Source: Candidatus Poribacteria bacterium (GTDB taxonomy: Bacteria; Poribacteria; WGA-4E; WGA-3G). Taken from it: a stretch of 64,000 nucleotides of DNA. The stretch is taken from positions 832,001-896,000 of the forward strand of contig CAXXUA010000005.1 in NCBI GenBank assembly GCA_963663765.2. The letters are read 5' to 3'. Shown in pieces: positions 482 to 57,443 of this stretch. The stretch's first letter is position 1; every line of letters starts with the position of its first letter. The position numbers and the translations under genes were made by a program. The notes under the pieces were generated by a model. That model searched no databases and was not told the DNA's origin. It saw only the letters and a program-made list of their open reading frames with translations.

Positions 482-910
482 CAGGGTTATTTAGTTTTAG
501 GTTTTTTTGATGATTATTTGCTATAACGTTAATTTTATATGTTGCCATCTTGTCCATGTCTTTAGTCCCGCCAAATGCCATACGGGGAATGCCTTAATGG
601 CATTCATACCGTTGATTTGGCGCATTTGGCGTTGATTTGGTAGGGACGATATGTTTATAGAAAATGTTTTCAACCCCAATTGAGTTCCGTAGGAACGACA
701 TAGAAGAATAAACATATCGTCCCTACGGGACTAAAGAACTGTGGAGGGTATTCGTTTTCTATAAACATATCGTCCCTACGGGACTAAAGAGCGATGTTCA
801 TGTTTCAATAACCTAAAACTGATGCAGAAAGTTCGGTTAGGAAATCGAACCTTGGTATTAACTTTTAGTAAATCTCAATAACAGAAAACTCTTAAAACTA
901 AATAACCCTG
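482..910 (+). mobile_element. MITE family A (CAGGG...CCCTG termini) carrying REP hairpins
   Basis: 18-bp terminal inverted repeat CAGGGTTATTTAGTTTTA / TAAAACTAAATAACCCTG. Homologous copies at 3756-4278, 19415-19697 and 50540-50947. No target duplication in this copy. Confidence 0.85.
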
Positions 911-1031
911 TATTATTGGCGAAGGTATTGCTAATCGTTTACCTAATCGTTTACTTTTGCAATAGATCGGTTTCTATTCTTCGTATTACGAGCAAAAAAC
1001 GGCTATTTAGCACGCGTTTCAGGGAAAATCG

Positions 1032-1144
1032 CTTACCTAATCAGTTACCTAATCAGTTACCTAATCGTTTACCTAATCGTTTACCTAATCGTTTACCTAA
1101 TCGTTTACCTAATCGTTTACCTAATCGTTTACCTAATCGTTTAC
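1032..1144. repeat. 12-bp tandem repeat TTACCTAATC(GT/AG), about 9 copies, plus 2 copies at ~931-954
   Basis: Read directly. On the minus strand the unit is GTA AAC GAT TAG, repeating the stop codon of a remnant winged-helix C-terminus (ELRDMVDKGILTVVGKGRSTKYLQKVND*). Confidence 0.9.
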
Positions 1145-1196
1145 TTTTTGGAGGTATTTAGTGCTTCTTCCCTTTCCTACTACAGTTAATATTCCT

Positions 1197-1514
1197 TTAT
1201 CTACCATATCCCTTAATTCCACATGCTCCTTTCTGAACGATCTTGCATGTGTTAAGTTGAGTATGACGCTCAAGTTTTTCTAACAGAGAATCCAAATCGT
1301 CAACAGTAAAACTATTTAATCGTCCGGTTCTCAGTTGCGTCATTTTGTCAGTCGTGATTCCCAAGCAATGCGCAACTTCTTTTTGAGTCATTCCTTGTTC
1401 AGCAATTAAAGTATTGATCTCATAAGCCAATTTTGCTTTTGCCAATCTTTCATTAGGTGAAGGAAGTCCTAAATCTTTAAATACATTGCCTGAACTTAGC
1501 GTATAATTTGCCAT
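1197..1514 (-). CDS. XRE/HigA-like HTH antitoxin or transcriptional regulator
   Basis: SSGNVFKDLGLP...MTQKEVAHCLGIT...GRLNSFTVDDL, an HTH_37-type pattern. The C-terminal tail runs into the remnant of another gene. Confidence 0.8.
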   Translation of the reverse strand: MANYTLSSGNVFKDLGLPSPNERLAKAKLAYEINTLIAEQGMTQKEVAHCLGITTDKMTQLRTGRLNSFTVDDLDSLLEKLERHTQLNTCKIVQKGACGIKGYGR

Positions 1515-1524
1515 AATCTAATAT

Positions 1525-1728
1525 CTATTCTTCCCAAAAGTTTTCCACCGGAAACGGTTTACTGCGTCCTTTGTATATCAACTAAACCCGGATTGTCCCC
1601 GATCGACGCGGCGGTGGCATGGTTATAGCAGCATCCCAGTCAAGAAGATCTTCTTCGTTGTCCGATAGAATGGTGAAGCGTGTCTCCTGTTTTTTCTTAG
1701 TCGTGTTTGTGCATTGTGGTGTTTTCAT
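1525..1728 (-). pseudogene. Small hypothetical gene with an internal TAG
   Basis: MKTPQCTNTTKKKQETRFTILSDNEEDLLDWDAAITMPPPRRSGTIRV*LIYKGRSKPFPVENFWEE*. An AAGGAG RBS lies upstream and the reading continues in frame past a single stop. Confidence 0.5.
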
Positions 1729-1789
1729 AATCTTTTGTTCTCCTTTTACATAACAATTTTAACAGGAATTGGCAGTGATTGCAACCGTA

Positions 1790-3415
1790 TTACAAAGGAA
1801 AAAACTCACCCTTATTCAGCAGTTGAATGCTATACCATTTTACCTTCCATTTACCGACTGTGGAAGTAGTATTGTGTACCTTAAAATGTTCTCCTTCCTT
1901 CGGTAAATACTTTCTGTTTTTCAACCACTCCGTAGTTGACCGAAGACTGTTTGTCGTTTTTAACTTTGCTATTAGATGGTTAGACCTGATAACAGGAACG
2001 TCAGGAGATTGGACATTAGCATTCCCAATCCAATTCTCCGACACAACTACCCCTTCAAGTTTATAATTTGAATCAATGTTAAGTTTTTCCAATAATTGCT
2101 GGTTGTTGTCGGCATACGCTTGTTTAGATTTTTGGATTTGAGAGATACCCTTTTCAACCTCTTCAGATTTCTCAATAATTTCACGTGCTTCTGCAGGATG
2201 AATGAACCATTTGAGTTCTAACAGTAGACACACTTTTTCGGAATCACTTACAATTGCAAGATCAACATCTGGTAGGTTTGCTACACTTCCCAAAACGAAT
2301 CTAAAATCTTTATTGGACAAATCAGAGGTGATACTTTCTCTCATAAGAGTTTCTTTATTAGTAACTAATTTTTGATAAATATCTTTTTCAGATGGTAACT
2401 TGTTTAGAAGTATGGTTAAATTCCGTTCTGCTGCGGAACATATCCATAAATTCGGCATAATCGCATAGTCATTTGAATTTAGTTTTATTAAAGGTTGTAA
2501 TGCAGGATCAGGATGGCGTATTCCCTTATTTCCATAAGTTAAATCATCAAAGACACTTTGCACCTTTGCTTCTGACAACTTTGAATATCTGACTGTACGT
2601 CTTAATAGATCCTCATAGGCAAATACATAAATACTATCAGGGTAACCCAAACGAACCCGTCCTTGATCTGAAGCAAACTTCCGTGCGGTGAGATGAATAC
2701 CTGCTAACGCTGCAATAACTTCAAAAACTGCTCGAAAATCTTTCAACGTATAGCGACTAAACTCCCAATCTCCAGGTAGTGAAAACACCATGTCTTGGGT
2801 AGGTCTAATTATTGCGGATATCATATCAGAAACCATCCGTGGGTTCAGCTTATAACGGAATCTATCACCTTTTATCCTTAAGGTGTGCCTGATTGCATCG
2901 TTTGGTGATTTATCAAAATTTGCCAAAGACAAAGTTTGTTGCGATGATTCTATTTTATTCAAACGGTTATATGCTTCGTACCCAACGCCACCACAAAGGT
3001 CGTTCTTTGATTGAATAGTAGTTCCTTTAAGTTCTAATTCAATCCAATTGTTGCTGGCGAATGTGTATGCTGTAACAAAATCTGTATATTTTTGTCCTAA
3101 TTTGTACAAATCCTGAGATGCTTTGTGCCGTCTGTCATTATAAGCAAAAGGAACTTTACCACCTCGCTGGCACCCACGGTATAACCAGTTCATTGGATCC
3201 TTAAGTTCATAAACAAAATTATCAACAATCATAGCGCGTTCTTGAAGTGTTGAAGAGCCAATAATATCTTTGAACATCATATCCTCAGCATACGCCAGCA
3301 AATACCACGCAGCAGCTGCAAAAGGGAGTTTGAGAAGTGGATTAGATTTATAGTAGCTATCTATCTCTTTTTCCACTTTTCGCAATTCGGGTGAAACGCT
3401 ATCTGCACTACTCAT
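1790..3415 (-). CDS. Hypothetical protein with C-terminal PD-(D/E)xK (NERD-like) nuclease domain
   Basis: 541-aa ORF with LPDVDLAIV...LLLELKW...KGISQI; large uncharacterised N-terminal region. Confidence 0.6.
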   Translation of the reverse strand: MSSADSVSPELRKVEKEIDSYYKSNPLLKLPFAAAAWYLLAYAEDMMFKDIIGSSTLQERAMIVDNFVYELKDPMNWLYRGCQRGGKVPFAYNDRRHKASQDLYKLGQKYTDFVTAYTFASNNWIELELKGTTIQSKNDLCGGVGYEAYNRLNKIESSQQTLSLANFDKSPNDAIRHTLRIKGDRFRYKLNPRMVSDMISAIIRPTQDMVFSLPGDWEFSRYTLKDFRAVFEVIAALAGIHLTARKFASDQGRVRLGYPDSIYVFAYEDLLRRTVRYSKLSEAKVQSVFDDLTYGNKGIRHPDPALQPLIKLNSNDYAIMPNLWICSAAERNLTILLNKLPSEKDIYQKLVTNKETLMRESITSDLSNKDFRFVLGSVANLPDVDLAIVSDSEKVCLLLELKWFIHPAEAREIIEKSEEVEKGISQIQKSKQAYADNNQQLLEKLNIDSNYKLEGVVVSENWIGNANVQSPDVPVIRSNHLIAKLKTTNSLRSTTEWLKNRKYLPKEGEHFKVHNTTSTVGKWKVKWYSIQLLNKGEFFPL

Positions 3416-3432
3416 AATAAACCTTCTTTACA

Positions 3433-3677
3433 TCAATTCCCAAAACCCATACGATACTTGATGTCGTAGTTGATGATGAAGTCTAATTCCTCGTCTGTGA
3501 AGTTGTAGTGTTCGGCAAAGATACGGTAAATTTTATCAATGATGTGTTTACATTCTGTGAGTCTCCGCCATCCTCTGAGGTTAAAATAACCCACACATCT
3601 GCATGGGTGGAGGATTCAAGGGTTTGTTTTAGTGCTTGAAGGAGCGGTTGGTCAATATTGTCAAAGATTCTGGGCAT
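3433..3677 (-). pseudogene. Deletion scar: helicase 5' end fused to the 3' end of a type IIG/Eco57I-like methyltransferase
   Basis: Near-copy of 282-397 (MPRIFDNIDQPLLQALKQTLESSTHAD) with a small frameshifting deletion, then GYFNLRGWRRL joined to KHIIDKIYRIFAEHYNFTDEELDFIINYDIKYRMGFGN*. Confidence 0.75.
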
Positions 3678-3755
3678 ACGAAGGTATTCCTTATTTTGTG
3701 TAGATTTTCTTATGGTATTTTAACAGACGCTTCCAATTTGTGCAAGTGTATAACC

Positions 3756-4278
3756 CAGGGACCCAGAGTTATTCAGTTTTAAGAGTTTTCTGTTCTTGAG
3801 ATTTACTGAAAGTTAATACCCAGGTTCGGTTTCCTAACCGAATTTTACGCATCATTTTAATTTATTGAAAACTGAATATCGCTCTTTAGTCCCGACAAAT
3901 GCCATACGGGGAATGCCTTAATGGCATTCATACCGTTGATTTGGCGCATTTGGCGTTGATTTGGTAGGGACGATATGTGTATAGATAACGAATACCCTCC
4001 ACAGTTCTTTAGTCCCGACAAATGCCACACGCGCATTTGGCGTTGATTTGGTAGGGACGATATGTGTATAGATAACGAATACCCTCCACAGTTCTTTAGT
4101 CCCGTAGGGACGATATGTTTATTCTTCTATGTCGTTCCTACGGAACTCAATTGGGGTGGAAAACATTTTCTATAAACATATCGTTCCTACGGAACTAAAG
4201 ACATGGACACGAGGGTATTACAAAATATTAACGGTATAACAAAATACTATCAAAAATATTGAAAACTGAATAACCTTG
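3756..4278 (-). mobile_element. MITE family A, inverted copy
   Basis: Reverse-complement homologue of 482-910, flanked by direct repeat TGTATAACC (3747-3755 and 4279-4287). The left end is ragged (extra CAGGGACC). Confidence 0.8.
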
Positions 4279-4458
4279 TGTATAACCTGAAATGTTAACA
4301 CACTACATTTGACTATTTTACCATGTTGGGATATAATAATAACCCGTTGTTGAGAAGAACTCAAATAGAAAATAGAAACTGTGCCGAAATTCATGATGAT
4401 GCCGCCGCAAAGTTCAGAATCGCATACGTGGTCAGTATATCTAACATAAGGAAACCTG

Positions 4459-5961
4459 ATGAAAACGCTATTATTAGTAAATATGTCGACTCTTGCAGAG
4501 ACTTTTCCCGATGATGTCGTGGAAATAGAAAAATCGGTTGAGACGTTTGTACACACCCATAATGCTGAAGTGCTTGATATTGGTGATGTCTACAAGGAAA
4601 AGACAGGGAAGCCAATTGCAATTCCTACTTATCCCGACCCAGAATTAACTGCATTGGCGCGGGACATCAAATCTGAGATTATCTCAAAAACGGATGGAGA
4701 ATTGGATTGTCTCATTCTGGTAGGAGATGAAACCGTAATTCCGATGTGGGAAATTCAGTTGGGTAGACTGCGTATTCACACTGATTCCTTCTATTCAGAC
4801 TTAGATGGAGATGGTCTGCCTGAAGTCGTGACGACGCGTGTCCTTGGAAATCCTGAAGCGATGCAGCTGCAACTTAGTGAAGAATTTGAGACCGCAGGAC
4901 AGAACGCAACGATTTTGTGTTCGGAGGATACCCGTATACATTTAGAAACGCAGCGATTTCTTGATGTGTTGTCACAACAAGGACATGAGGTTGAAGTTCT
5001 CGGTAGGGGTGGGGCAGAATGCTTATCACAGTCGGATTTGATCATTCACTTTGGACATGGAAGTCCTCAAAGTCTAAACAATCGATTTGGTGAAATATTT
5101 GTAAGTGCGAAAGATATGCCAACTTTTCCACAACATCCAATTGCGATCATTAATGGATGTGCTACCACGCCTCCTGGGTCAACGTTGTTACGGGGGTTTT
5201 TGAATAACGGTTGCCGCACTTATCTTGGTAATACTGCAGTCGTTGCAGGAATGATTCCCGCGAGATATACAAACCAACTCATCATGAATTTTCTTACTGC
5301 CTATAAATCACATCCAGATTGGTCGGTTGTGAAATTATTTACAGAAGCTCGAGCAGAATATGCAAGTGTTGCTAAGATTACCAAGACATTATTGAAACTT
5401 GAAAAAACTGGTAGATTAAAGAGATTTAAGGGAGATTTGCAAACGCATCTGCTAACGTTCTTAGAGTGGAATGCCTACGGATCTCCATTATCTCTTCTAC
5501 ATCAAGGTGAAGCGAATCCTGTATTTGTTAAGCATCCACTGGTCAAATCCAAGGAAATTCTTAAAGCAGAAGGACAAAATACAATTGAGACCACTATTGA
5601 CATTACGGAGCAGGATGGCGAACCAATTCTTTATATTCAAGCAGATTGGCTGACTTCCGATTCTTCTTCACTTGTGCTTCGGATCCAACAAAATGGAAAG
5701 GCAATCCATGAATTAAAAGGAGATACACACATTGTTTTTCAACACATTGAAGACATTTGTGTCGGTGGTTATGTTGATGGTGATGTGTATCACGCTTATT
5801 GGTTGTTGCCACTGCAGAGAGTCGTTGGTGTAAACAGATTACGAATTGAACTTGTGACTCAATCGGCAGCGTTAACGATTTTGCCAGAATCAGCAGTCGA
5901 GATTTGGCCTGAATGGAAAACCATTTCTGCACCAGAGAGAAATTCACCAGATGTGTTGTGA
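4459..5961 (+). CDS. C25 (gingipain-like, caspase-hemoglobinase fold) cysteine peptidase
   Basis: LILVGDETVIP, DSFYSDLDGDGLPEV..TRV, catalytic-dyad motifs HFGHGS and IINGC, and late NAYGSP. Confidence 0.7.
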   Translation: MKTLLLVNMSTLAETFPDDVVEIEKSVETFVHTHNAEVLDIGDVYKEKTGKPIAIPTYPDPELTALARDIKSEIISKTDGELDCLILVGDETVIPMWEIQLGRLRIHTDSFYSDLDGDGLPEVVTTRVLGNPEAMQLQLSEEFETAGQNATILCSEDTRIHLETQRFLDVLSQQGHEVEVLGRGGAECLSQSDLIIHFGHGSPQSLNNRFGEIFVSAKDMPTFPQHPIAIINGCATTPPGSTLLRGFLNNGCRTYLGNTAVVAGMIPARYTNQLIMNFLTAYKSHPDWSVVKLFTEARAEYASVAKITKTLLKLEKTGRLKRFKGDLQTHLLTFLEWNAYGSPLSLLHQGEANPVFVKHPLVKSKEILKAEGQNTIETTIDITEQDGEPILYIQADWLTSDSSSLVLRIQQNGKAIHELKGDTHIVFQHIEDICVGGYVDGDVYHAYWLLPLQRVVGVNRLRIELVTQSAALTILPESAVEIWPEWKTISAPERNSPDVL

Positions 5962-5987
5962 TCTCCTAAGAATAGGCGTTGTTTCTG

Positions 5988-7184
5988 CTATAGTTCCTCA
6001 CTGTATTCGGGTTCTTTTGCTGGTCGGATAACCCATTTTTCAAAAATGGATCTGAAGGATTTTGCGTGTTCACCAAAATGGAGATACTGGATACTTTTCG
6101 TTGGGATTGACACCTCTCCGTAGATTGGTGAACGTCCAAACAGTTTTTCGCCTTTAACTTCAATCGGTTCAAAAATAAGGATTGGATTGTGAATCAACGC
6201 AAAACGAACAACGGTTTGTGACTCTTCTGTTTGTGGTTTGTCAGAATCTGTTTGTTGTATTTGGTTTATTTCAGTATTATCCTCACCTATTGCCAATGCC
6301 TCAAAATTCTCCTCACTAATATCTATGATCCGTGCAACCCTCTCTATGGGTATCCTCATCTTCTTCAACCTTGAATCAAACAGAATTGTTTCTTCATTGA
6401 AACTGAGTAGTTTACCTCGTTTTATATCCCCATTGCTTGCTACGAGTATGTGACTCGGTGGATCGTCGCGATTGAATCGTGGTACTGTAAGTGCGCGTTC
6501 AATTTTTTCATCCAAATTCTCAGTTTTGGTTTCAAGAGGGTCAACGTGCAGTTCAACTGCGCGCTTTAGAGCTAATGCATCATTTGCGGCAAAGTTTCCA
6601 CTGACAGCAATGTCTGTCGGTTTTTCCTTAGGGTCTCCAGGTGTGATTTTTATTTCTAAAGTGCCATCTTTGGGTCTACGCACTGTAGCTTCCAAAATAC
6701 GTCCATCTTCTAAAATGATACGGTTTTTATTTCCACCAGTAATAACAATAGGATTTCTGTTTTCCTTTCGTGTTTGTGTTTTTCCCCGAGAGAACTCAAT
6801 ACCTTTGATATGTGTTGCATCCATCCGCGTTGCACTGATAAATGGGGAACGAAAATGAATGTTGATCGCGTCGTAGGATATGACTTGGCATGGTATAACT
6901 TCACCGTTTTTTAAATGCACGAGATGTGGAAACGTATTTACACTAAAAGGTCGTAATCTTGAGATTTGTTTACTATTGCGCTGTATACGAATGGGCTCAT
7001 TTTTTGAAATGTTTACTGGTTCTGACATTCCTATTGGTTGCCATTTTACATTGGATTTGTCGTTAGTATCATATATCACATGTCCTCGGAGACTACCCAT
7101 TGGAAAAAATAATTGGTCATAATCTATGAGTTTACCTCTTGGCTGTTTTTTTTGAACCGAGTTGGAAGAGTGATAGTCCATCAA
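5988..7184 (-). CDS. C-terminal part of a large secreted SHD1-like repeat protein (probably frameshifted from 7132-8472)
   Basis: Repeated VHLKNGEVI / ASNGDIKRGKLL modules. Overlaps the upstream ORF at an A8 run. Confidence 0.55.
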   Translation of the reverse strand: MMDYHSSNSVQKKQPRGKLIDYDQLFFPMGSLRGHVIYDTNDKSNVKWQPIGMSEPVNISKNEPIRIQRNSKQISRLRPFSVNTFPHLVHLKNGEVIPCQVISYDAINIHFRSPFISATRMDATHIKGIEFSRGKTQTRKENRNPIVITGGNKNRIILEDGRILEATVRRPKDGTLEIKITPGDPKEKPTDIAVSGNFAANDALALKRAVELHVDPLETKTENLDEKIERALTVPRFNRDDPPSHILVASNGDIKRGKLLSFNEETILFDSRLKKMRIPIERVARIIDISEENFEALAIGEDNTEINQIQQTDSDKPQTEESQTVVRFALIHNPILIFEPIEVKGEKLFGRSPIYGEVSIPTKSIQYLHFGEHAKSFRSIFEKWVIRPAKEPEYSEEL

Positions 7185-8472
7185 GGGAACAAGTCATGGG
7201 TTCTTCTGTGAAGTTTGTCTGTATTACAACACTATCTTGTTCCATCTGCAGAACTTGACCTTTTATGACAGAACCGTCTAAATATGTTAATGTCATACCT
7301 TGTTTTATCGATGCCAATTCTTGGTCAGGTTGTATGAGTTGATCAATCTGTTGAAGATTGATGTTTGTGCGAGTACCATCCGTACCGAGAACGTAACTGT
7401 TATCATTTTCGACATATAATTTACCGTGATGAACATCACCATTCATCATGTTGACTCTCGGTTTAGTAAAATCAACTTCTTGGTTATTAAATTCCCCTGC
7501 TTGTTTGTAGACTTTTAACCGTTTGATCGTCAGGTCTTGTCCTCGGTTGTAGATATAGGGACCTGAAATCGCGGTAGTGGGACTAACAGTATCAAGTTTC
7601 AACAGCAAATTACCGTTCAGTTCAAAGATTTTCAACGTACTTGAGTTTTGGTCATAAGCAAGTCGCAAACGGAAGTTACGTCGGTCTGGTTCTATTGACA
7701 TGATAGGTTCAAATAGGGTTCCTTGAACGACAACAAGTTCGTTCACCCAGGTTTCTATTCGCAATGCTTCATATAGATTTTTTCCGAGAGCGAAAACAAA
7801 TTCTGGGGGTCGAGTTGTTGATTCAAATTCAAGGTCAATGACAAACTGTGCTGGCCATTTGAGAGGATAGTATAGGTTCGTTTTACCTATATCTGTTCGT
7901 GCCTGTCCGCCTTGGTCGGCATACCAACCGATCTGATGATTGTTTTTGTTGGATTGAATCTGCTGATTGTCTTTACCGTTTCCAACAGTTTCCCAGAAAG
8001 AGAGTTGCGATCCGTCAAAAACGAGATTTGAATGCTCACGACTTTCAAGTGAGTAAATTGAGGAACGGTTCACACGAAATGTGCCGAAGCTTTTACTCTT
8101 AAAAAGCAATGTGTTCTCGTCTGAACCAATTATGTCCGCAGTCCAACTATCCCCCGTCACCGTGGCAATCCGAAATGTCTCAATGTTTTTTGCAGAGGGT
8201 TTGGAGAAGACGATTGAATCCAACACAGACAAGTCAACATTGAGATCGTCTGTAAAGTGCGATGATTCCCATCGAATTTTGCCGGACTTACTGTCTATCA
8301 GTTTGCCGGTAAGGGTATCCCCATTTTTCCAGCGTAAAAGAGTTTCCTGTGCCAGTATTGTAGTAGGAAGCCACAGAACAGCAAGTGTAACGGCAACGAT
8401 GTATATTTTCTTTAGACATTTTCGCATTGGACTTTCCTTTTCTGTAAAATTCACATCATATTTTGGATTCAC
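7132..8472 (-). CDS. N-terminal part of a large secreted protein of the MoxR/vWA operon
   Basis: Signal peptide (MRKCLKKIYIVAVTLAVLWLPTTILA) and LRWKNGDTLTGKL modules. Removing one A from the A8 run at 7146-7153 fuses it to 5988-7184. Confidence 0.6.
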   Translation of the reverse strand: MNPKYDVNFTEKESPMRKCLKKIYIVAVTLAVLWLPTTILAQETLLRWKNGDTLTGKLIDSKSGKIRWESSHFTDDLNVDLSVLDSIVFSKPSAKNIETFRIATVTGDSWTADIIGSDENTLLFKSKSFGTFRVNRSSIYSLESREHSNLVFDGSQLSFWETVGNGKDNQQIQSNKNNHQIGWYADQGGQARTDIGKTNLYYPLKWPAQFVIDLEFESTTRPPEFVFALGKNLYEALRIETWVNELVVVQGTLFEPIMSIEPDRRNFRLRLAYDQNSSTLKIFELNGNLLLKLDTVSPTTAISGPYIYNRGQDLTIKRLKVYKQAGEFNNQEVDFTKPRVNMMNGDVHHGKLYVENDNSYVLGTDGTRTNINLQQIDQLIQPDQELASIKQGMTLTYLDGSVIKGQVLQMEQDSVVIQTNFTEEPMTCSLDGLSLFQLGSKKTAKR

Positions 8473-8505
8473 TTTGGTCTATCTAATTTTCTCGGTTGAT
8501 AGTAT

Positions 8506-9609
8506 CTATCTTTCATAGATGGGTAGCAAACGATAGTTCAAAGCTAAGGTAAGAACTGCCATTCCAGTACCATAGGCTTTGCCATAAGAACTGTTGAAAC
8601 TTCCATCTTGTTGTTGCATTTTTTGTAACCGGGTTATTGTGCGTTCATTCCAAGATTGCCATGCCTCGAAATCAGTTTGAAACAGTGCCTGCGCCATATA
8701 ATATAATGTATAGAACTGATAATGACTACCTATGCTGTGATTTATCCTGCGTTTTATATATTCTGAAGTTGATTTATATTCTGGAGTATCTTTTCTCTTG
8801 CCAATAGCATATACGAGTGTTGCAATAGCAGACCTTGTGAGACCATCACCGTGGCTGCTTGATGGCATATATGAAACGCCCCCTCCTCGTTTTGTGCATG
8901 TTTGGAAAAAGTTGAGTGCTTTGTCAATGGTTTCATTTGAGATTTCAATCCCCGCATTTCGTGCACCGAAGATTCCCATTAGAACGGTTCCAGCGACGGT
9001 TGTATCTGCATCTCTTGCTGTGGGAGAATAACGCCATGCCCCCCAAGGATTCTTTTTTTGTGCAGTCAAAGCGCATCTGACCCCGAGTTCTAATGCTTCA
9101 CTGATTGTGCGTCTACGGCTTTGAGGTATATCACTTTCTTGCCAGAGCAGATCTTCCCTGACTGCACCATACGCTTCTGATAGAGCTAATGTTGCGAAAC
9201 CGTGTTGGTACATTGAGGCGTGTCCCCTCGTTCCCATGTATCCTGTTTTTGGGTTTTGGCTGGCGATCATATTTTGTAAAGCCTTACGTATATGTGTTGC
9301 ATAAGGTCCATAGTCAGGGTCTTCTCCACTTGCCATCAATGCCATCACGCAAATACCTGTTACACCAGGTCCTTTTTGAGATCCTTTCCAACTTCCATCT
9401 TGTAACTGGGTGTTAGCGAGGTATCGTAGACATCGATCATTGATACTCCTTACCGTAGGTGAGACACCAGTTCCGTAACGTAGGGTAGGGTCTTGTGCGT
9501 AGGTTGAATTGCTAAAAGATGTGATTAGCAGGATAAGGAAACCAAGGACACTGAAAATCAATAAGTGATAATGTTTCAGTAAACCTGTAACTTTGTTGTA
9601 TTTTGTCAT
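8506..9609 (-). CDS. Prenyltransferase/squalene-oxidase repeat (QW-motif alpha/alpha barrel) protein
   Basis: YLANTQLQDGSW, MYQHGFATLALSEAYG, GAWRY, LQKMQQQDGSF and terminal YRLLPIYER. Start placed at MTKYNK, which precedes a signal/anchor segment. Confidence 0.85.
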   Translation of the reverse strand: MTKYNKVTGLLKHYHLLIFSVLGFLILLITSFSNSTYAQDPTLRYGTGVSPTVRSINDRCLRYLANTQLQDGSWKGSQKGPGVTGICVMALMASGEDPDYGPYATHIRKALQNMIASQNPKTGYMGTRGHASMYQHGFATLALSEAYGAVREDLLWQESDIPQSRRRTISEALELGVRCALTAQKKNPWGAWRYSPTARDADTTVAGTVLMGIFGARNAGIEISNETIDKALNFFQTCTKRGGGVSYMPSSSHGDGLTRSAIATLVYAIGKRKDTPEYKSTSEYIKRRINHSIGSHYQFYTLYYMAQALFQTDFEAWQSWNERTITRLQKMQQQDGSFNSSYGKAYGTGMAVLTLALNYRLLPIYER

Positions 9610-9611
9610 AA

Positions 9612-11273
9612 TTATCTTCCACCTTTCAATGCACTTTTCTGCCAAGGATTCAATATCTGGTCGTCCATCCAAATGAGATATTCAAGAAACATCACTTGAA
9701 GTCCTTCATTGCTCAACGAGGGTAAAGTCAAATGTGTTGTTATCCTTTTTAGTTTGTTAAGTTGCAAATCGTTAAATAGGAAAATTATATCCCAATAAGC
9801 CACAAGAAAATTTTGTAATGTATTGGCTCTAAATTTCTCTCGTTCCGTTTGTCGTGCTTTATATAGGAAATAAGCATTTTCAGATAGGACGTCTTTGATT
9901 GCTTGTTGGAATAGGGGGTGACTTGTAATCATGTTAAGTTCCGTTGCTTTCCATTGTTCATTTTTGTCACTTTCACCCCATAATTCTTTCTTCAAGGACT
10001 CAAGATTCTCTAAAGCCTGTTCGTGGGAAATATTTTGCAACATGAATTTCTGCGCAAAAAATCCTATTTTTGAAAGGAATTCGGAATTGTCATCAAAGTC
10101 CGGTAATTCCAATTCAATATATTGTTGGCTCACGCCTTTGATAACTATTTCCAAACGTTTTGATGCTTTTTCGTTGAACGTGCCTAACTGCTCAATATGT
10201 GATTTAAGTATTGCTTCAGCCAAAATCCATGTTTGAGAATTGTATGGACTTTCATTTGTCCAATCTTTCTCTGTTGTATTTTCCGATGGCACTTCAGAAA
10301 ATTCAATAGCAAGTAATTCCTTATGATCATCTTGCATATCAACTAATATTTGCCAAATTCTATACTGGGTTTGGTTCAATATAGTATCCATTGGAATTTT
10401 CAATTCATTTTGTAGAAGATTTACCACTCGCTTGCGAAATGATACCCCCATTAACATTCCAATAAAAGAGACACCGTACTTTCCACTTGGGGAGTCAAGC
10501 ATTAATTTTGCAAAGTTTTCGCGCTGACTGACTGTTAGGTTTAGTTTTTGATCAACGAACGCTATTATTAATTGAATATTGGCTTTCTGAAGGTTACGTT
10601 TCCGCGCATTGGTGTAATTGATATAATCTTGAAGTTGTTTTTCTGTGAGGTACTTGGTAAACGTTACCTTGAAATCAGGTTTTGACAACATTGCGACAAT
10701 AAAAGCTGCGCTGACATAATCATTTATCGGTCCGAAGTCTTTCAGTTCTTGGTCTCCCTGTTCCATCACTGTATTGAATGCTTCAAGAATTGACTCTTGT
10801 AGTGTTTCAACAATAGTCTCGTCCAATTTGTAACGTTTACCGATATCTTCTGCGACATGTTGTAATATGCATTGATACACACGGTTCTCAAAATCACCTT
10901 TTTTTAACATTTTGAACCGGTCAAAGATTTCACCCCCAGGAACAACGATCTTCTGTTTTCCACTTCGAGGATGATACCCTTTCTTGGATATACTGATAGT
11001 ATATCGTCCTGCTGTAAGACCTGTAAATTCATATTTACCTTTGGCATCAGTTTTTACTGTCCACTCTTTTCCATCTGAACTAACAATCTTAACTGTAACA
11101 CCTTCAATTGGGTTTAGGTCTTTCGTTGCTTCAATAACTTCGCCTCGGATGGTGCCTCCCTTTGCAGCATTGTCTTCTGCAAGTGCAACGCATGCGGATA
11201 TACCGATACAAATGATTGCTATAAGCACAATACTACAACGGTTCATTTTCTTCATCATCTTCCTCTCATTCAT
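9612..11273 (-). CDS. Secreted protein with carboxypeptidase-regulatory-like (transthyretin-fold) N-domain and helical C-region
   Basis: Signal peptide, then GTIRGEV..PIEGVTVKI..TDAKGKYEFTGLTAGRYTISISKKGY. Confidence 0.7.
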   Translation of the reverse strand: MNERKMMKKMNRCSIVLIAIICIGISACVALAEDNAAKGGTIRGEVIEATKDLNPIEGVTVKIVSSDGKEWTVKTDAKGKYEFTGLTAGRYTISISKKGYHPRSGKQKIVVPGGEIFDRFKMLKKGDFENRVYQCILQHVAEDIGKRYKLDETIVETLQESILEAFNTVMEQGDQELKDFGPINDYVSAAFIVAMLSKPDFKVTFTKYLTEKQLQDYINYTNARKRNLQKANIQLIIAFVDQKLNLTVSQRENFAKLMLDSPSGKYGVSFIGMLMGVSFRKRVVNLLQNELKIPMDTILNQTQYRIWQILVDMQDDHKELLAIEFSEVPSENTTEKDWTNESPYNSQTWILAEAILKSHIEQLGTFNEKASKRLEIVIKGVSQQYIELELPDFDDNSEFLSKIGFFAQKFMLQNISHEQALENLESLKKELWGESDKNEQWKATELNMITSHPLFQQAIKDVLSENAYFLYKARQTEREKFRANTLQNFLVAYWDIIFLFNDLQLNKLKRITTHLTLPSLSNEGLQVMFLEYLIWMDDQILNPWQKSALKGGR

Positions 11274-11291
11274 CTTATACCATAAAATAAG

Positions 11292-11413
11292 CGGGGCTTA
11301 CGCACCCAACGGTAGGCGCGCTTTGTAAGCGCGCTGGAAACCGAAAAAATGCTGAAAATTACACCATTTTCGTCATAATTCTTCATCAAATCATGAAAAC
11401 TGCGTAAGTCCTG
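11292..11413 (+). mobile_element. MITE family B (CAGGACTTACGCA...TGCGTAAGTCCTG)
   Basis: 13-bp terminal inverted repeats, degenerate on the left; 5-bp duplication ATAAG on both sides. Confidence 0.85.
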
Positions 11414-11867
11414 ATAAGATACCATTTGTTGACGTGTTCTTGTAGGAGGGACCTCCCGGTCACTCCTACCTTAGGAAACCTATGTTAGCATGTGTGATTA
11501 ATCAGCAATTGAATGTCTCTGGATAAGGATTATCAACTTATGTATAAAACTGTCCAAACTTTGGTATCAATCAGACATTTTTCTTGTATGTAGGTATTTT
11601 CAATAAGGGTGAATATTAAAAGTTACGTTCAGCGTATAATTGGATTTGTAAAGTTTAGTTGTTTTTTTCGTGTTTTTTATAATTTTTTCAAAAGTCTTTT
11701 CGATCCTGTCGTGGCATGGGTTTATATTGATTTTTTATTTTAACGAAATTTTGAAAAAAACAACTAAATGGCTCATTCGGCAATTAATTTTAGCATAAAA
11801 TAAAAGTCCAATGCTGAAGAACCCAGTAGTCATATGTTTAAGTAGTAGATCGTCAATGGAAACATAT

Positions 11868-12060
11868 CAGGACTTACGCACCCAACGGTAGGCGGTGAAT
11901 GCCTAAATGGCATTCATACCCGGGGAATGCCAAAAGGCATTCATACCGTTGATTTCTTGATTTGGTGCTTTGTAAGCGCGCCGGAAACCTAAAAAATGCT
12001 GAAAATTACATCATTTTCGTCTTAATTCTTGATTGGATCATGAAAACTGCGTAAGTCCTG
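11868..12060 (+). mobile_element. MITE family B with nested mini-elements
   Basis: Perfect 13-bp TIRs and 5-bp duplication CATAT. Two nested GAATGCC..GGCATTC modules at 11894-11964. Confidence 0.9.
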
Positions 12061-12181
12061 CATATAATAAATACTAAGCAAGAAAACAACTAAATGGATT
12101 TTTTATCGTTTTTTTGTTGTGTCTTTTGTTTTGGATTTGTCAACTGTTAATGAATTGTATAATCTACCAAAATTAAAGAAT

Positions 12182-13126: not shown

Positions 13127-13156
13127 CGTTTTCCCTCTTTTCAGACTGTCGTATGC

Positions 13157-14383: not shown

Positions 14384-14398
14384 TCCTCCAGCCCCTTG

Positions 14399-16768: not shown

Positions 16769-16843
16769 TGAAGTTCTCCTTTGGTGTGCCTATTTGTTTT
16801 CTATTTCAATGTAAATTCTGATAATGTTTTATGAATACTTAAA

Positions 16844-16936
16844 CTATATCGTACCTGCCATCTTTCGTGCAACCCAAAATAACGCAAGCAGTAAGATAAT
16901 CAGTCCGCCCGAAAGCGGGTGCGACCAGATACATGT
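16844..16936 (-). repeat. Duplicated 3' end (93 bp) of the vWA gene 19756-21963
   Basis: Matches 19756-19848 with about 6 mismatches; the two copies bound the defence cassette. Confidence 0.9.
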
Positions 16937-16945
16937 TTGATTTGG

Positions 16946-18124: not shown

Positions 18125-18140
18125 CTAATACCAGAAACAC

Positions 18141-19267
18141 TTACTCTATTTCCTTAGGATTATTATACAATTCCCAGTAACCTGAGCCTTTCTCAACATT
18201 TTTTGCAGATCCTTGTTTTGCAAGAGCTTGCAATGCGCTATTGAAAAGCTGATCTATAGCCGATTTTGCATCCAGTCCACCCCGAACTTGATGAATTTTA
18301 GTTACTTCATCAGAACTTACGCAAAAACGGTAGGCGTGCTTTGTAAGCGCGCTGGAAACCTATAAAAATACTGATTAATTACATCATTTTCAACATAATT
18401 CTTGATTAAATCAAGAAAACTGCGTAAGTCCTGTTCATTTATAATATCTTGTTTTTTAGTTTTCCCTTTATCTCCGAATAATTCTATAATAAGAGGTCTT
18501 GCCATCTTACCTGTAAGATACTTGCCTGCGTAATCGTACTTGTAACTTGACTGTTTATCAGAAATTACATCCATATTTGGGGTAGGTGTTGGTTCCACTG
18601 GTGGTGCATATAAGTTTTGCAGAAATGTTATCACGTGTTCTGGGGTAGGACGCTTGCCACATAGTTCTGATGTCTTTTCAACAATGATTTTCAGTAGAAG
18701 TTCATTCTGTTCTTTTACTAAAAGGTTCCATGCTTCTGGTACCCCTTTTTGAATCTGTCTTTCATAAACCACGTTCTGATAGTCTTCAGCAATGACTTTC
18801 ACCATCTTTCCTGTCTTTACACTTTCATAATTCAGGTACCTGTTTAGGCGTTCGGCGATTTCATCGCTTTTTCCACCGATAAGATCCAATTCGTGTACCA
18901 GCCGGTCTTTGTAATTCCCGGTACCTGCGGGGTAAAAAAAACGCCATTTCTGCCCATCAGTAAGAACAACAATCGGAACCCCTTCAATAAAAGCATATTC
19001 AAACAGCTGCTTTTCTGCTCCTTGAATTTTTCCCACCTGCTTAACTTCAATAAAAATGATGGGCTTTTCTGGTGGATGACAAAGTGCAAAGTCAACTCTC
19101 CTTCCCTCAACTGAGTATTCAGAGATGATAATTTGAGGACTGAACATTGGCCATTGCAATACCTGAAGCAGTCTATTCACAATATGATTAGAAACAGCAG
19201 ACTCATCTTTATATGCGTTTTTTTCTAAATTATTACGAATATCATCAATATGTTCTATAAGTGTCAT
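18141..19267 (-). pseudogene. HsdR-N-like PD-(D/E)xK endonuclease with C-terminal winged helix, interrupted by a MITE
   Basis: EYSVEGRRVDFAL..IFIEVK..QLFEYA..VLTDG..WRF. Removing 18311-18433 plus one TSD restores NEVTKIHQVRGGLDAKSAIDQLFNSALQALAKQGSAKNVEKGSGYWELYNNPKEIE*. Confidence 0.8.
18311..18433 (+). mobile_element. MITE family B inside the endonuclease gene
   Basis: CAGAACTTACGCA...TGCGTAAGTCCTG with 5-bp duplication TTCAT. Confidence 0.9.
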
Positions 19268-19414
19268 TCGTATTCAATGCCTCTAATAAAAGTAAAGGTT
19301 TTGAGCATTTAATGGTACGGCATGAGTGTAAGATTACCTTCAATAACGCGACACATTCAATTGGTAAAATGATAGCATATTGTAGGAAATATTGCCATGA
19401 AATAACAAACCGAC

Positions 19415-19697
19415 CAGGGATATTCAGTTTTCAATATTTTTGATAGTATTTTGCTATGTCGTTAATTTTATGTGTTGCCATCTTGTCCGTGTCTTTAGTC
19501 CCGTAGGGACAATATGTTTATAGAAAAATGGTATATAACACTCTTGAGTTCCGTAGGAACGGCATAGAAGAATAAACATATCGTCCCTGCGGGACTAAAG
19601 AGCGATGTTCATGTTTCAATAATCTAAAATTGATGTATTGGGTATTAACTTTCAGTAAATCTCAATAACAGAAAACTTTTAAAACTGAATAACCCTA
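19415..19697 (+). mobile_element. MITE family A (shortened)
   Basis: CAGGGATATTCAGTTTT...AAAACTGAATAACCCTA, flanked by CAAACCGAC on both sides (19406-19414, 19698-19706). Confidence 0.9.
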
Positions 19698-29909: not shown

Positions 29910-30067
29910 CAGGACTTACGCACCAAACGGTAGGCGGGGAATGCCTAAATGGCATTCATACCGTTGATTTGGCGCTTTGTAAGCGCGCTGGAAACCGAAA
30001 AAATGCTGAAAATTACACCATTTTCGTCATAATTCTTCATCAAATCATGAAAACTGCGTAAGTCCTG
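29910..30067 (+). mobile_element. MITE family B with one 36-nt mini-element
   Basis: Perfect 13-bp TIRs. Essentially the same as 11292-11413 apart from a few substitutions and the insertion at 29936-29971. No clear TSD. Confidence 0.85.
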
Positions 30068-35977: not shown

Positions 35978-36195
35978 AGTCCCGACAAATGCCATACGGG
36001 GAATGCCTTAATGGCATTCATACCGTTGATTTGGCGCATTTGGCGTTGATTTGGTAGGGACGATAGGTTTATAGAAAAACGTCATAGTACATCCTCTTTA
36101 GTCCCGACAAATGCCATACGGGGAATGCCTTAATGGCATTCATACCGTTGATTTGGCGCATTTGGCGTTGATTTGGTAGGGACGATATGTGTGCA
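35978..36195. repeat. Two CCCGTAGGGACGAT REP-like units, each split by a 70-nt nested mini-element
   Basis: Inserts at 35984-36053 and 36106-36175 are identical to 3894-3963. Confidence 0.85.
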
Positions 36196-51011: not shown

Positions 51012-51312
51012 CGGATAAGATATTTGCATTAGGTTTTTTGGCTAGTTTTTTTATCTGAACCAGGATTTCCAGGATTTACAGATTTTCAGGATAAGACCTC
51101 TGTATTAGGTTTTTTTGCTTGTTTTTTACTCTGAACCAGGATTTACAAATCAACGGCATGAATGCTATAAAGCATTCCCAGGTATTTACAGATTTTCAGG
51201 ATAAGACCTCTGCATTAGGTTTTTTTGCTTGTTTTTTGTCTGAACCAGGATTTACAGGATTTACAGGATTTACAGATTTTCAGGATAAGACATTTGCATT
51301 AGGTTTTTTTGC
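51012..51312. repeat. ~76-bp tandem units, about 4 copies, with internal CAGGATTTA 9-mers
   Basis: TCTGAACCAGGATTTAC...GATTTTCAGGATAAGAC..TGCATTAGGTTTTTTTGC repeated; another copy at ~51488-51540. Confidence 0.8.
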
Positions 51313-55264: not shown

Positions 55265-55410
55265 CGATTATTTTATCTATACATTTCCAGAGGACACTAT
55301 GTGTATCTGTTCCTGCATAGTTTGCAAGTTGCTTATATTTAGCAACCGAGGTTATTTCTCAAGCATGTGTAAATACCTACGTATCGTTGAACGTCTTTGA
55401 ATTCAGTTTC

Positions 55411-55938
55411 TCAACGGATCTTTAGGAAACGTTTAGGTTGATCTTGTGGAATGACTTCAAATGAAATAAGTTTTTCGTCGTTAACTTCTGATGCTTCAGC
55501 ATTGGACTGGTTAAACGGATTTAGTTTTTCAATTTTGGGTGAATAGAGCGTTACACCTACCATCATTACTACGCCGAATACAAAGCCTGTCATATAAAGT
55601 GGATTATATGCACGAATGTTACCACGTATCCAGGATTTCATATTCTCAACTGCAGAACCTATACGGTTAATCACTGATCGTTGAGCATTTTCATAAGTTT
55701 GCATCGTCTTTACACGCGACATGACGTTTGACAGAAAATATTCAGAGGTATTGACAGGTTCTAAATAGTTGAGAAGTTTATCTGTTTGTTGAATTGTAGC
55801 GTATCGGTCGGTACAATTCGCACACCGTTTTAGATGCCAACGGATAATATGCCGTTTCCATGTTGGCAGTTCGTTGTCAAAGTAGGCTGAGAGTTGTGAT
55901 TGATAGTTTTGGCAGTTGTTTATTTTAGATTTGGGCAT
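55411..55938 (-). CDS. Zinc-finger (ZAS, zf-HC2) membrane anti-sigma factor
   Basis: C....QLSAYFDNEL...HLKRCANC plus a TM helix; overlaps the sigma gene stop. Confidence 0.9.
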   Translation of the reverse strand: MPKSKINNCQNYQSQLSAYFDNELPTWKRHIIRWHLKRCANCTDRYATIQQTDKLLNYLEPVNTSEYFLSNVMSRVKTMQTYENAQRSVINRIGSAVENMKSWIRGNIRAYNPLYMTGFVFGVVMMVGVTLYSPKIEKLNPFNQSNAEASEVNDEKLISFEVIPQDQPKRFLKIR

Positions 55939-56524
55939 TTACACTTTCTCCTATTCCAACCTTGATAAGCAATTTTTTCATGTTTTGTCGTGCTCGGTGG
56001 ATTAGTGATTTTACTGCTCCGACAGAACAGTTTAGTATTTCAGATATTTCTTCATAACTAAGTTCTTGGTATGTTACCAGCGTCAATGCTAAACGTTGAT
56101 TTTCAGGGAGTTGTTTCAGCGTTTTTCTGATAAGTTGTTGCCGTTCTTTTTTTTCATATAGGATGTCGGGTTGAAAACGTGTATCTACCATATATTGAGA
56201 ATGATAAACATCCTCATTTTCGTCAACCATATCTTCCAGATAGTAGGTTTTTCGTCGTGCGCGATTTCGGATTTCATTTCGGGACAAATTGGTTGCGATC
56301 GTGTAAAGCCAACTTTTAAAGGAGGCTCTTGGTTCATAACGACTTGCGCTTTTGTAAACCCGTAGAAACGTCTCTTGTGCTAAGTCTTCAGCGCGATGAA
56401 AGTCGCTGATAATATAATAGATATAGTTTACAAGTGCATCTTGATACCTTCTGACAAGCAGCTCAAACGCACTCATATCACCTTTACGACATTCTAACAT
56501 TAAATCTTCATCAGAAACAATCAT
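55925..56524 (-). CDS. ECF sigma-70 factor
   Basis: GDMSAFELLVRRY, AEDLAQETFLR, FKSWLYTIATN and LSYEEIS..L.CSVGAVKSLIHRAR. Confidence 0.95.
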   Translation of the reverse strand: MIVSDEDLMLECRKGDMSAFELLVRRYQDALVNYIYYIISDFHRAEDLAQETFLRVYKSASRYEPRASFKSWLYTIATNLSRNEIRNRARRKTYYLEDMVDENEDVYHSQYMVDTRFQPDILYEKKERQQLIRKTLKQLPENQRLALTLVTYQELSYEEISEILNCSVGAVKSLIHRARQNMKKLLIKVGIGESVNAQI

Positions 56525-56578
56525 AATGTTCTCCTGTCAATGCAGAGATGTGTTTAGCACTCTCATAGGGTGTCTGAT

Positions 56579-57202
56579 TTATTCTTCTTCCGTGCTTGCT
56601 TTTTTTGTTGACTGGTGATCTCTTGTAGGTGTAAACTTCAGACGCATTGCTGTTTTAAAGGCTGTGATCGCTTTTCGTCGCTTTCCCTGAATTGAGTAAA
56701 CGGCTCCGAGTTCAGAATGCAATTCTGGGTGATTCGGAATAAATTGGATTGCTCGTTCATAGACGTCAATAGCCTCATCGTAACGCTTCAACATTCTATA
56801 GATCGATGCAAGATTGATATACACAGTGATTTCAGTTGGTTCACATGTAATTGCTTTCTTGTAAGCATCTATTGCTTTCTCATAGTTGTCTAACATGAAG
56901 TATGCTAAACCGAGATGAAAATGTGCTTCAGCGGATTCACGATTATGTTGAATGACGAGAAGGAATTCTTCAATTGCTTTTTTGTAGTCACGAGCATTTA
57001 GGGCATCCGCTCCCTGTTTTAGATGCTTTTCTGCGGTTTGGTGGTGATGAATATCCAATCTGCCACTTTGTATAAACTTGTTTTGCAATCTTTCAGAAGA
57101 GATAGTTGAATCATCACGTCGTAGGGAGGAGTTCACGGTTTGAATTTTATCTGCTGCATTGCTTTTTTTGTTTCTCATCTGTAAACTCCGTTCTCCATTC
57201 AC
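56579..57202 (-). CDS. TPR protein
   Basis: About four TPR motifs (AHFHLGLAYF, VYINLASIY, LHSELGAVY). Confidence 0.85.
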   Translation of the reverse strand: MNGERSLQMRNKKSNAADKIQTVNSSLRRDDSTISSERLQNKFIQSGRLDIHHHQTAEKHLKQGADALNARDYKKAIEEFLLVIQHNRESAEAHFHLGLAYFMLDNYEKAIDAYKKAITCEPTEITVYINLASIYRMLKRYDEAIDVYERAIQFIPNHPELHSELGAVYSIQGKRRKAITAFKTAMRLKFTPTRDHQSTKKASTEEE

Positions 57203-57261
57203 TGAGCAACTATTATAACATTAACACCTATGTTCCAAAAAAGTGGCATTTTATTAACAAC

Positions 57262-57443
57262 CAGAACTTACGCAGTTTTCATGATTTAATCAAGAAATGT
57301 GCTGAAAATGATGTAATTTTCAGCATTATTTATGTTTCCAGTGCGCTTACAAAGCACCAAATCAACGGTATGAATCATGGAGCATGCCATACGCGCATGC
57401 TTCTTTAGGCATTCCCCGTCTACCGCTGGGTGCATAAGTCCTG
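57262..57443 (-). mobile_element. MITE family B (inverted) with a doubly nested mini-element
   Basis: CAGAACTTACGCA...TGCATAAGTCCTG; insert at 57358-57417. Confidence 0.8.

Follow-up and report, generated by a model that had tools for sequence, protein, structure and literature searches.

Nested hairpin modules of 34-36 nt occupy specific sites in other small repeats of a Poribacteria genome

A 64,000-nt stretch of a Candidatus Poribacteria genome (GenBank assembly GCA_963663765.2, contig CAXXUA010000005.1, positions 832,001 to 896,000; hereafter the window) carries hairpin units of about 35 nt, which sit inside other small repeats and inside one another. Are these units mobile DNA in their own right, or are they carried along by the repeats in which they lie? 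An initial annotation of the window, made from its letters without database searches, had taken them for tiny mobile units. All the features it named were located at their places when the window was re-examined. The window's own genome (G000) is a metagenome-assembled genome (MAG) of a sponge symbiont, 6.35 Mb in 15 contigs and 97.8% complete. For a gene near the units, the best matches in the genome collection all come from Candidatus Poribacteria MAGs (83-97% amino-acid identity), ahead of Planctomycetota (74-79%). We find that the units have defined ends and covarying stems, that their sites and orientation are specific, that filled and empty sites occur together, and that units are gained or lost independently of host lineage. 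The modules are real and mobile-like, and closest in kind to the small dispersed repeats (SDRs) of cyanobacteria. The reading we prefer, with a probability of roughly 0.4, is that they are non-autonomous, ultra-small mobile DNA modules which would be placed by a trans-acting activity recognising hairpin and tail.

[quoted passage not shown] When the MITE at 11292 was aligned with the MITE at 29910, they differed by one clean 36-nt indel (29936-29971), between ...GGTAGGC and GCGCTTTG..., thereby confirming that X is missing from the former and present at the same site in the latter. As compared to these two, the MITE copy at 11868 holds an additional 35 nt within its X unit. The nesting of X in X claimed for this copy (11894-11964) was correct, with the inner unit at 11922-11956, but it is not a plain insertion at C^G, as the G of the outer unit is replaced by C on both sides of the inner one (G -> C...C). 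A second unit, Y, lies in repetitive extragenic palindromic (REP) sequences. Among three consecutive REPs of one array, one is empty (4094-4117), one is filled by a 34-nt Y (4017-4050), and one is filled by the same Y split by a 36-nt X (3894-3963); a fourth example is found at 570-639. The Y at 4017-4050 was rightly said to split a CCC^GTAGGG REP, the empty form of which stands at ~4100-4104, and inner X units were located in all four Y loops in which they had been noticed (570-639, 3894-3963, 35984-36053 and 36106-36175). X was also reported from an unrelated repeat at 51146, where we find an X variant on the minus strand (51146-51180). The third hairpin described inside X at 57358-57417 is present; it is, however, oriented opposite to X, its loop on the X strand is the reverse complement of the Y loop, and it has no tail of its own.

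Table 1. Hairpin units, their host repeats and empty target sites in the window
Positions	Strand	Feature	Length or basis
570..639	+	Y unit in REP at ...AGTCCC^GTAGGG...; X in Y loop at 584-619 (36 nt)	Y is 34 nt after removal of the inner X
3894..3963	+	Y unit with X in loop at 3908-3943, within a tandem REP array	REP alignment
4017..4050	+	Simple Y unit in the neighbouring REP of the array at 3894..3963	34 nt, REP alignment
4094..4117	+	REP without unit, an empty site (~4100-4104); third repeat of the array	REP alignment
11292..11413	+	MITE copy with site 1 empty, ...GGTAGGC^GCGCTTTG...	MITE alignment
11894..11964	+	X nested in X, filling site 1 in the MITE copy at 11868: outer hairpin, C, inner unit 11922-11956, C, outer tail	
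18330..18345	+	Further empty copy of the site-1 target motif	
19498..19510	+	Further empty REP target	
29936..29971	+	Simple X, 36 nt, at site 1 of the MITE at ~29910-30068	MITE alignment
35984..36053	+	Y unit with X in loop (35998-36033)	
36106..36175	+	Y unit with X in loop (36120-36155)	
51146..51180	-	X variant with compensated stem change and different loop, between short tandem repeats of another repeat family	
57358..57417	-	X-like unit in MITE; its loop contains a further hairpin in opposite orientation	

All units follow one layout: they start with G at the 5' end, continue with a hairpin of 7-9 bp that C closes, and finish with a constant tail, GTTGATTT plus one base. The total is 34-36 nt, of which the hairpin portion alone makes up 25-27 nt. 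X has a 7-bp stem, a 4-5-nt loop and a 5-nt spacer, and a second form of X has the 7-nt loop typical of Y. In Y and in two further families, W and V, 9-bp stems closed by G...C carry 7-nt loops and the tail comes directly after the stem. A 10-mer of the tail occurs 12 times in the window as compared to 0.23 expected, a count not attained in any of 100 shuffles. Over the whole genome of 6.35 Mb we counted it 462 times, as compared to ~12 expected under a uniform model. Using family-specific fuzzy patterns, and stripping the units layer by layer, we parsed 669 units from the genome, amounting to 23,555 nt or 0.37% of it. Of these, 539 belong to nesting level 1, 120 to level 2 and 10 to level 3, and 130 of the 669 were complete only once an inner unit had been removed. 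The patterns presuppose the listed stems, and other stem families are under-counted; among these are the form with a long stem at 57358-57417 and, in other species, the family with the GCAGCATGC stem. A tail-anchored hairpin search that assumed no family recovered a few stem types, those of X, X with the Y-type loop, Y, W and V.

A hairpin of at least 6 bp was kept in 646 of the 669 units, and the stems differ on both sides of the helix. The inner stem was AATGCC/GGCATT in 391 units, AAATGC/GCATTT in 123, GAATGC/GCATTC in 65, AATGCT/AGCATT in 19, AGAAGC/GCTTCT in 15 and AATACC/GGTATT in 8. For a test of covariation we took 18 X-type units, of which 4 belong to the window and 14 to five other species (six species in all), only units with a detectable hairpin being eligible. 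In these, 99.2% of the cells were paired and four of the seven pairs had changed on both sides, while slid controls paired in 26-43%. The covariation score of X was 0.330 as compared to 0.146 ± 0.024 for shuffled data (0 of 500 shuffles), and folding of X as single-stranded DNA gave a z of -3.5. The data support the proposal that these tiny units form one family, in which the stems differ and covary while the 3' tail is common to all. The unit ends are asymmetric: neither inverted terminal repeats nor a duplication longer than 1 nt was seen in the MITE and REP alignments. The earlier claim of asymmetric ends without target-site duplication therefore holds down to 1 nt; since every clean junction C^[G...G]^G has a one-base ambiguity, a 1-nt duplication of G may have accompanied insertion. 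Being without terminal inverted repeats and without a target-site duplication longer than 1 nt, the units do not fit DDE-type MITEs, in agreement with the first assessment.

The sites occupied by the units are short and specific. The last base of the left flank was C in 611 of the 669 units and the first base of the right flank was G in 438. The clean form C^[G...G]^G accounted for 379 units, in line with the proposed insertion at C^G, whereas 185 had a C-type 3' junction that departs from it. Altogether, 192 distinct 8+8-nt contexts surround the units. Y is found at ...GTCCC^GTAG... of one REP in 124 of 127 copies, the fuller site being GTCCC^GTAGGG, and W at ...ACCC(C/T)^GATTT in 15 of 15. 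The main X target, (T/C)AGGC^G(C/T)GC, is a hairpin module present in the MITE and in a tandem repeat; arrays of a ~57-nt unit containing this target hairpin lie on contig C5 near 1822000. Further X targets are CATAC^GCGC, which is the Y loop, the hairpin/tail junction of X itself, and several minor hosts. For three minor host repeats and an apparently unique hairpin site (C5:500154) the junctions are described from filled copies.

A genome search for hairpin plus tail, with a tabulation of filled versus empty sites, had been suggested with the initial annotation and revealed many unrelated hosts and abundant empty sites. The empty form is the majority in each host tabulated: 598 empty and ~125 filled (by Y) for the REP, 358 and 204 for the MITE-type site 1, 594 and 32 for the CTGCAGGC repeat, and 232 and 15 for the W site. 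In this tabulation V units and X units with a Y-type loop were partly merged with X. At a second site of the MITE, filled copies read GTAGGC^GCGCTGG, with the site-1-like hexamer GTAGGC, and empty copies read GTAAGC in 198 cases and GTAGGC in one. The same X loop variant, taken as stem end plus loop, was found in at least 10 host classes for TAAAT and in 13 for AAAA, counting classes with at least two copies. Identical 5' and 3' unit ends, exact to the base, recur in at least 7 unrelated clean host classes, which share 1 nt of flank. Among the 482 outermost units, 449 lie outside long open reading frames (ORFs). Orientation relative to neighbouring genes is unbiased (133 same, 146 opposite), and there is a mild bias against the G-rich strand (191 of 482), which is confounded by clustered arrays.

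If the units spread only as passengers of the MITE, their presence should follow MITE descent. The MITE family is ~122 nt long when unit-free, with terminal inverted repeats and clear subfamilies; its copies in the window lie at 11292-11413, 11868-12050, 29910-30068 and ~57300-57470. We collected 227 near-full-length copies from the unit-stripped genome (mean identity to the window copy 89.5%) and built a maximum-likelihood tree on the stripped copies. Of these, 157 were empty, 47 were filled at site 1 and 22 at site 2, and the orientation of insertion was uniform (71 of 71). Occupancy of site 1 required 42 changes on the tree. When the labels were shuffled the number was 43.0 ± 1.9, with 74 of 200 shuffles as low. 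As a control, six common single-nucleotide polymorphism (SNP) columns, each excluded from its own tree, required 6-31 changes as compared to 35-59 when shuffled, and none of 100 shuffles was as low. The strong clustering of the SNP columns means that the tree bears a strong lineage signal. Since site 1 is occupied in a pattern no less scattered than that of shuffled labels, its occupancy is decoupled from MITE descent and implies about 40 independent gains or losses, or transfers between copies. Site 2 was partly clustered (17 changes as compared to 21.3 ± 0.8; 1 of 200). The data support that the units are gained or lost independently of MITE lineages, and spread as MITE passengers alone does not account for them.

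The nests follow a strict grammar. With H for the hairpin and T for TTGATTT, a simple unit reads g-H-g-T-g, a tandem joint reads ...T-g-g-H..., and the X-in-X nest reads g-H-c-[g-H-g-T]-c-T-g, the outer G being replaced by C on both sides. Of 563 occurrences of the X 3' arm with its spacer, 413 lead into the tail (GTTGATTT plus G or C in 394 and close variants in 19), 101 into C and a new hairpin, and one into a 'plain' G and hairpin. Blocks were of the types HT (297), HTT (64), HHTT (38), HTTT (16), HHTTT (6) and HHT (2). The number of tails thus tracks the number of hairpins, and surplus tails are always joined by C. At least 30 combinations of outer and inner loops occur in nests, the outer loop being typical of the host and the inner mostly AAAA. 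Among the ~150 matches listed from other species of the genus, tails were joined in no other way than by C, and the whole nest grammar recurs there with further compensated stems. This rule is most simply accounted for if a single pre-formed junction was copied by homology; it may, more interestingly, be a signature specific to the reaction.

Next we consider how widely the units are distributed. The exact X 20-mer was found in 23 of 24 other genomes of the genus (0-164 copies per genome), and the window's genome has the most, 338; none of the 16 genomes taken from the order's three other families has it. Enrichment of the tail is confined to this genus, with 29-550 copies per genome as compared to ~11-58 elsewhere and ~1-21 for the reversed control. 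In a search with a covariance model of X, matches were obtained in 30 of 30 genomes of this genus (g1), 36 of 38 of a sister genus (g9) and one of two of g10, and single hits in 3 of 47 genomes searched from the other three families. The g9 units have the same hairpin, but their tail is often shorter by one base, with 6-nt arrays, and they lie in different hosts. The architecture is therefore retained across two genera of one family. In G086, a genome of another family that otherwise lacks units, the X model has one match, which is near-perfect (E = 3.8e-15) and could reflect MAG contamination (5% listed) or transfer. At two loci of g9 (L146 and L150) X units lie within tandem heptamer arrays. 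A heptamer context has reportedly been noticed for the small dispersed repeats of Nostocaceae, which these loci recall.

How might such units be placed? In the reading we prefer, a trans-acting activity would read the shape of the hairpin and the sequence of the tail. It would place the module directly after the C of short family-specific sites, always facing the same way and duplicating no more than 1 nt: (T/C)AGGC^G(C/T)GC and CATAC^GCGC for X, GTCCC^GTAGGG for Y and AACCCC^GATTT for W. These sites are found in other small repeats and in the modules themselves. The likeliest form of the reaction would be a strand-specific, hairpin-directed insertion of single-stranded DNA by a putative enzyme, after which copies would multiply by amplification of the host repeats, recombination between repeat copies and slippage of the tail. 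We infer the enzyme, the single-stranded substrate and the direction, insertion rather than excision. Two accounts of the units remain, a strand-transfer activity specific for hairpin and tail, or enzyme-free template switching and short-tract conversion. We prefer the former because the same ends occur in unrelated hosts and because the recognition features are conserved over two genera.

Several results weigh against this preferred reading. The first group concerns machinery, as searches of the window's genome and the genus gave no candidate for a mobilising enzyme. The Y1_Tnp profile gave six matches in the window's genome, namely four IS200/IS605 copies, one gene of the REP-associated tyrosine transposase (RAYT) type and one fragment. 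The IS200/IS605 element is ~1.75 kb long with tnpA (139 aa) and tnpB (370 aa); it lies at G000:C5:687426-689182 and in three further copies (L013-L016). Identity among the four copies is 98-99%, and a different multi-copy insertion sequence (IS) has split one of them. The end hairpins of the IS200/IS605 element are unrelated to those of the units and it has no tail. The single RAYT-type Y1 gene (G000:C4:620161-623487, L017) has long arrays of GTAG-tagged, GTAGGAG-type REPs on both sides; REPs of this type serve as X hosts elsewhere in the genome. Within 3.3 kb of the RAYT and IS200/IS605 loci no unit or tail was found, except one at a contig-end fragment. With that exception, a Y1 transposase or reverse transcriptase gene flanked by the unit tail, as had been envisaged, was not found in the window's genome.

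Nor does the presence of these genes follow the units across the genus. Y1_Tnp was not found in 4 of 40 genus genomes, including G024 (1 contig, 89 X copies), G001 (4 contigs, 81 X copies) and G010 (94 X copies), and G009 has 21 Y1 matches with only 3 X copies. RAYT homologues were not found in 7 of the 40, including carriers of 81-94 X copies; they were strong in G020 and G007, which have 2 and 8 X copies, respectively. RVT_1 had no match in the window's genome, while a control search matched 3 of 14 genomes, and the IS110 profile had no match there either. Y2_Tnp, Zn_Tnp_IS91 and Helitron_like_N gave no matches, but neither did their control searches, so these three negatives carry no weight. 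The genes next to the two largest tandem arrays are ordinary.

The second group concerns the units themselves. Hosts have preferred loop variants (TAAAT in 48 of 66 at site 1, TTAAT in 35 of 47 in the Y loop, AAAA in 45 of 94 in nests), and some minor hosts have unclean junctions, which simple cut-and-paste does not predict. The same applies to the G -> C...C junction of X-in-X. The C-variant form of the simple X, which nests would require as their empty site, is nearly missing, with four copies in the genome. Lastly, a filled/empty polymorphism at an orthologous locus between strains was not shown, as contigs stop at repeats and the nearest genomes are too diverged. These nearest genomes (G045 and G016) have 91-92% coding DNA identity; the intergenic region with the MITE at 29910 is not alignable, and the window MITE was not present in the orthologous intergenic region of these two species. 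Read-set contigs, from four of the runs with 45-94% of the words of window positions 3001-13000, were compared with window positions 1-20000; all end at repeats and none spans a unit. Contigs of two runs (X6 and X7) differ from window 1-20000 by ~2% in coding DNA, indicating related strains or species in other samples.

The alternative that survives best needs no dedicated enzyme. Units would be copied by template switching or short-tract gene conversion between small-repeat copies: replication would stall at the hairpin and the nascent strand re-anneal on another copy, new hosts would arise by rare illegitimate events, and arrays by slippage. We regard this as possible, if doubtful. No transposase or reverse transcriptase that correlates with the units was found, as this account would have it, and the scattered occupancy on the MITE tree is also expected from conversion between copies. 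The preferred loop variant per host is a pattern expected from homology-driven spread within a host family. An invariant C...C nest junction can be understood as one pre-formed junction copied into other X units through the homology of 3' arm and tail, which would leave the recipient's outer loop in place and make the C-variant empty sites near-absent. Unclean junctions in some hosts and arrays with more tails than hairpins (HTT and HTTT) agree with it as well. Tail-like sequence forms the right flank of the main X host, with agreement at 7 of 8 positions and one gap (1.2% of control sites reach at least 7), and that of the Y loop, with agreement at 6 of 9. As a general rule, however, a tail-like right flank had to be rejected, being true for only 2 of ~8 independent host modules, which speaks against this account. 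Template switching at microhomologies should moreover give variable ends, whereas exact ends recur in at least 7 unrelated clean host classes. The homology arms available for nest conversion are just ~12 and ~8 nt, and the constant tail and compensated stems kept in two genera argue for a recognition constraint.

Mobilisation by a Y1 HUH enzyme, in the manner of REPs and REP doublets forming hairpins (REPINs) with their RAYT, or as derivatives of IS200/IS605, was among the mechanisms first suggested, and we now think it unlikely. It would agree with insertion 3' of a short specific sequence, without duplication and in one orientation, with a hairpin 0-5 nt upstream of a 9-nt tail, with the Y1 genes of the window's genome and with the many targets that are GTAG-type REP modules. 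The units, however, lack a GTAG tag, carry a single hairpin instead of two and do not occur as inverted doublets. The ends of the IS copies show no relation to them, the RAYT is flanked by a different type of REP, and the surroundings of both kinds of loci are free of units and tails but for the contig-end fragment. Genomes without a Y1_Tnp match that carry 81-94 X copies (G024, G001 and G010), and genomes with strong RAYT and hardly any X (G020 and G007), show that neither gene follows unit abundance.

It could also be that the units are immobile, as a functional motif, either a protein-binding site or an RNA structure, carried passively by amplifying hosts, with the empty sites being deletions. 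Most copies do lie in repeats that are themselves multi-copy, most outermost units are outside long ORFs, and the hairpin is conserved. We nevertheless find this improbable, since occupancy does not track MITE lineages while SNPs do, at least 10 unrelated host contexts are known, the empty site is the consensus and majority form of every host, and nests reach three levels. A precise deletion of 34-36 nt with only 1 nt of flanking homology would have to recur dozens of times. RNA-mediated spread, also raised in the initial annotation, in which a transcribed unit is reverse-transcribed into new sites or its tail is added in a telomerase-like way, is very improbable. In its favour, the 3' tail is always complete, and tail-only repeats (H-T-T) could resemble extreme 5' truncation or repeated addition; against it, RVT_1 is unmatched in a 97.8% complete genome, no intermediate 5' truncations occur (the 563 X 3' arms are followed by the tail in 413 cases or by C and a new hairpin in 101), gene orientation is unbiased (133 versus 146), and an Rfam search of the window matched no family.

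Among known systems, the SDRs of Nostocaceae are, to our knowledge, the only comparable case, and we know of no mobilising enzyme or mechanism described for them since 2008. These repeats, SDR1-8, are reportedly 21-27 nt long and occur within a coherent cyanobacterial subgroup. They are said to share a secondary structure with compensatory changes, to nest in their own copies, to reside in mini-transposons and to adjoin short tandem repeats. Set beside these descriptions, the Poribacteria units are alike in being very small, with compensated structure, precise insertion at short sites, self-nesting (130 of the 669 at levels 2 and 3) and residence in MITEs and beside short tandem repeats. They differ in their length of 34-36 nt, as compared to the 21-27 nt reported for SDRs, and in their occurrence in two genera of one family of Poribacteria rather than in cyanobacteria. 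By description, they differ further in having one constant tail common to families with different stems, and a fixed grammar with C or G joiners. The resemblance to SDRs suggested at the outset is thus apt as an analogy, the organism being a sponge symbiont of the Poribacteria. Among papers citing the work on SDRs (PMC5861425, PMC4390886 and PMC3116915), SDR5 is described as inserting between the third and fourth bases of highly iterated palindrome 1 (HIP1).

REPs and REPINs with their RAYT are short extragenic hairpin repeats in hundreds of copies that are strand-specific and thought to move as single strands (Bertels and Rainey 2011, PMC3116915; Di Nocera et al. 2013, PMC3733652). The Poribacteria units are likewise short, extragenic, strand-specific hairpins in hundreds of copies, in a genome with a RAYT flanked by its own REPs. 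Unlike REPs and REPINs, their consensus sequences have no GTAG or CGTC tag, their blocks are direct (single, tandem or nested) without inverted doublets, they do not adjoin the RAYT gene, and their abundance is not tied to its presence; they are also inserted into REPs. IS200/IS605 elements insert 3' of a short specific sequence without target duplication, and have no terminal inverted repeats and a subterminal hairpin at each end. The units resemble them in lying 3' of a short sequence without duplication, as seen in the clean 34- and 36-nt indels and in the C of the left flank in 611 of 669, and in a 3' end downstream of the hairpin. They differ from them in having one hairpin, ends unrelated to the resident IS and carriers without a Y1 transposase match. 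Rolling-circle elements (Helitrons and IS91/ISCR) are kilobases long, have asymmetric ends, insert between two fixed bases without duplication and bear a hairpin ~10 nt upstream of the 3' end. The units share with these the asymmetry, the lack of duplication, the 3'-proximal hairpin and the head-to-tail tandem arrays; at ~35 nt they are far from them in size. Literature searches on repeats, mobile elements and nested stem-loops gave no paper on such elements in Poribacteria, and a text search for the unit sequence strings gave no relevant paper.

Tentatively, and with some doubt, the units may represent a new class of structure-defined mobile DNA of 34-36 nt, which would need in cis only a hairpin and an 8-nt tail, and whose machinery would be something other than a Y1 HUH enzyme or a reverse transcriptase. 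With every event at a junction of hairpin and tail, one H and one T would be added and C would replace G at the joints, a signature that points to an undescribed strand-transfer or copying reaction. The same reaction might explain the cyanobacterial SDRs too. The Poribacteria family offers a second, independent instance of such elements in another phylum. Elements this small probe the lower size limit of mobile DNA. Carriers without a Y1 transposase match, together with the lack of a reverse transcriptase match in the window's genome, reduce the number of candidate mechanisms. Many complete long-read genomes, clear filled and empty sites, family-specific target motifs and the strict junction grammar could open the question to experiment.

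A few minor observations concern tails outside recognised units and the surrounding repeats. There were 42 tails without a recognised upstream hairpin, mostly nest remainders or chance matches. Two four-copy groups of tails were considered as candidates for an autonomous partner and rejected: one is a composite of other repeats, and the other is a 2.1-kb repeat with two ORFs, the motif lying within or between them. This 2.1-kb repeat is found at G000:C2:64500-66600 and in four further copies; it contains the tail 10-mer, and its ORFs of 279 and 304 aa were not assigned to a family. Short-read assemblies of these sponge symbionts are interrupted at each copy by the units together with the repeats that host them. 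Tandem arrays of a ~53-nt REP-containing unit occupy window positions ~3960-4120, and the window's genome as a whole is unusually rich in layered small repeats.

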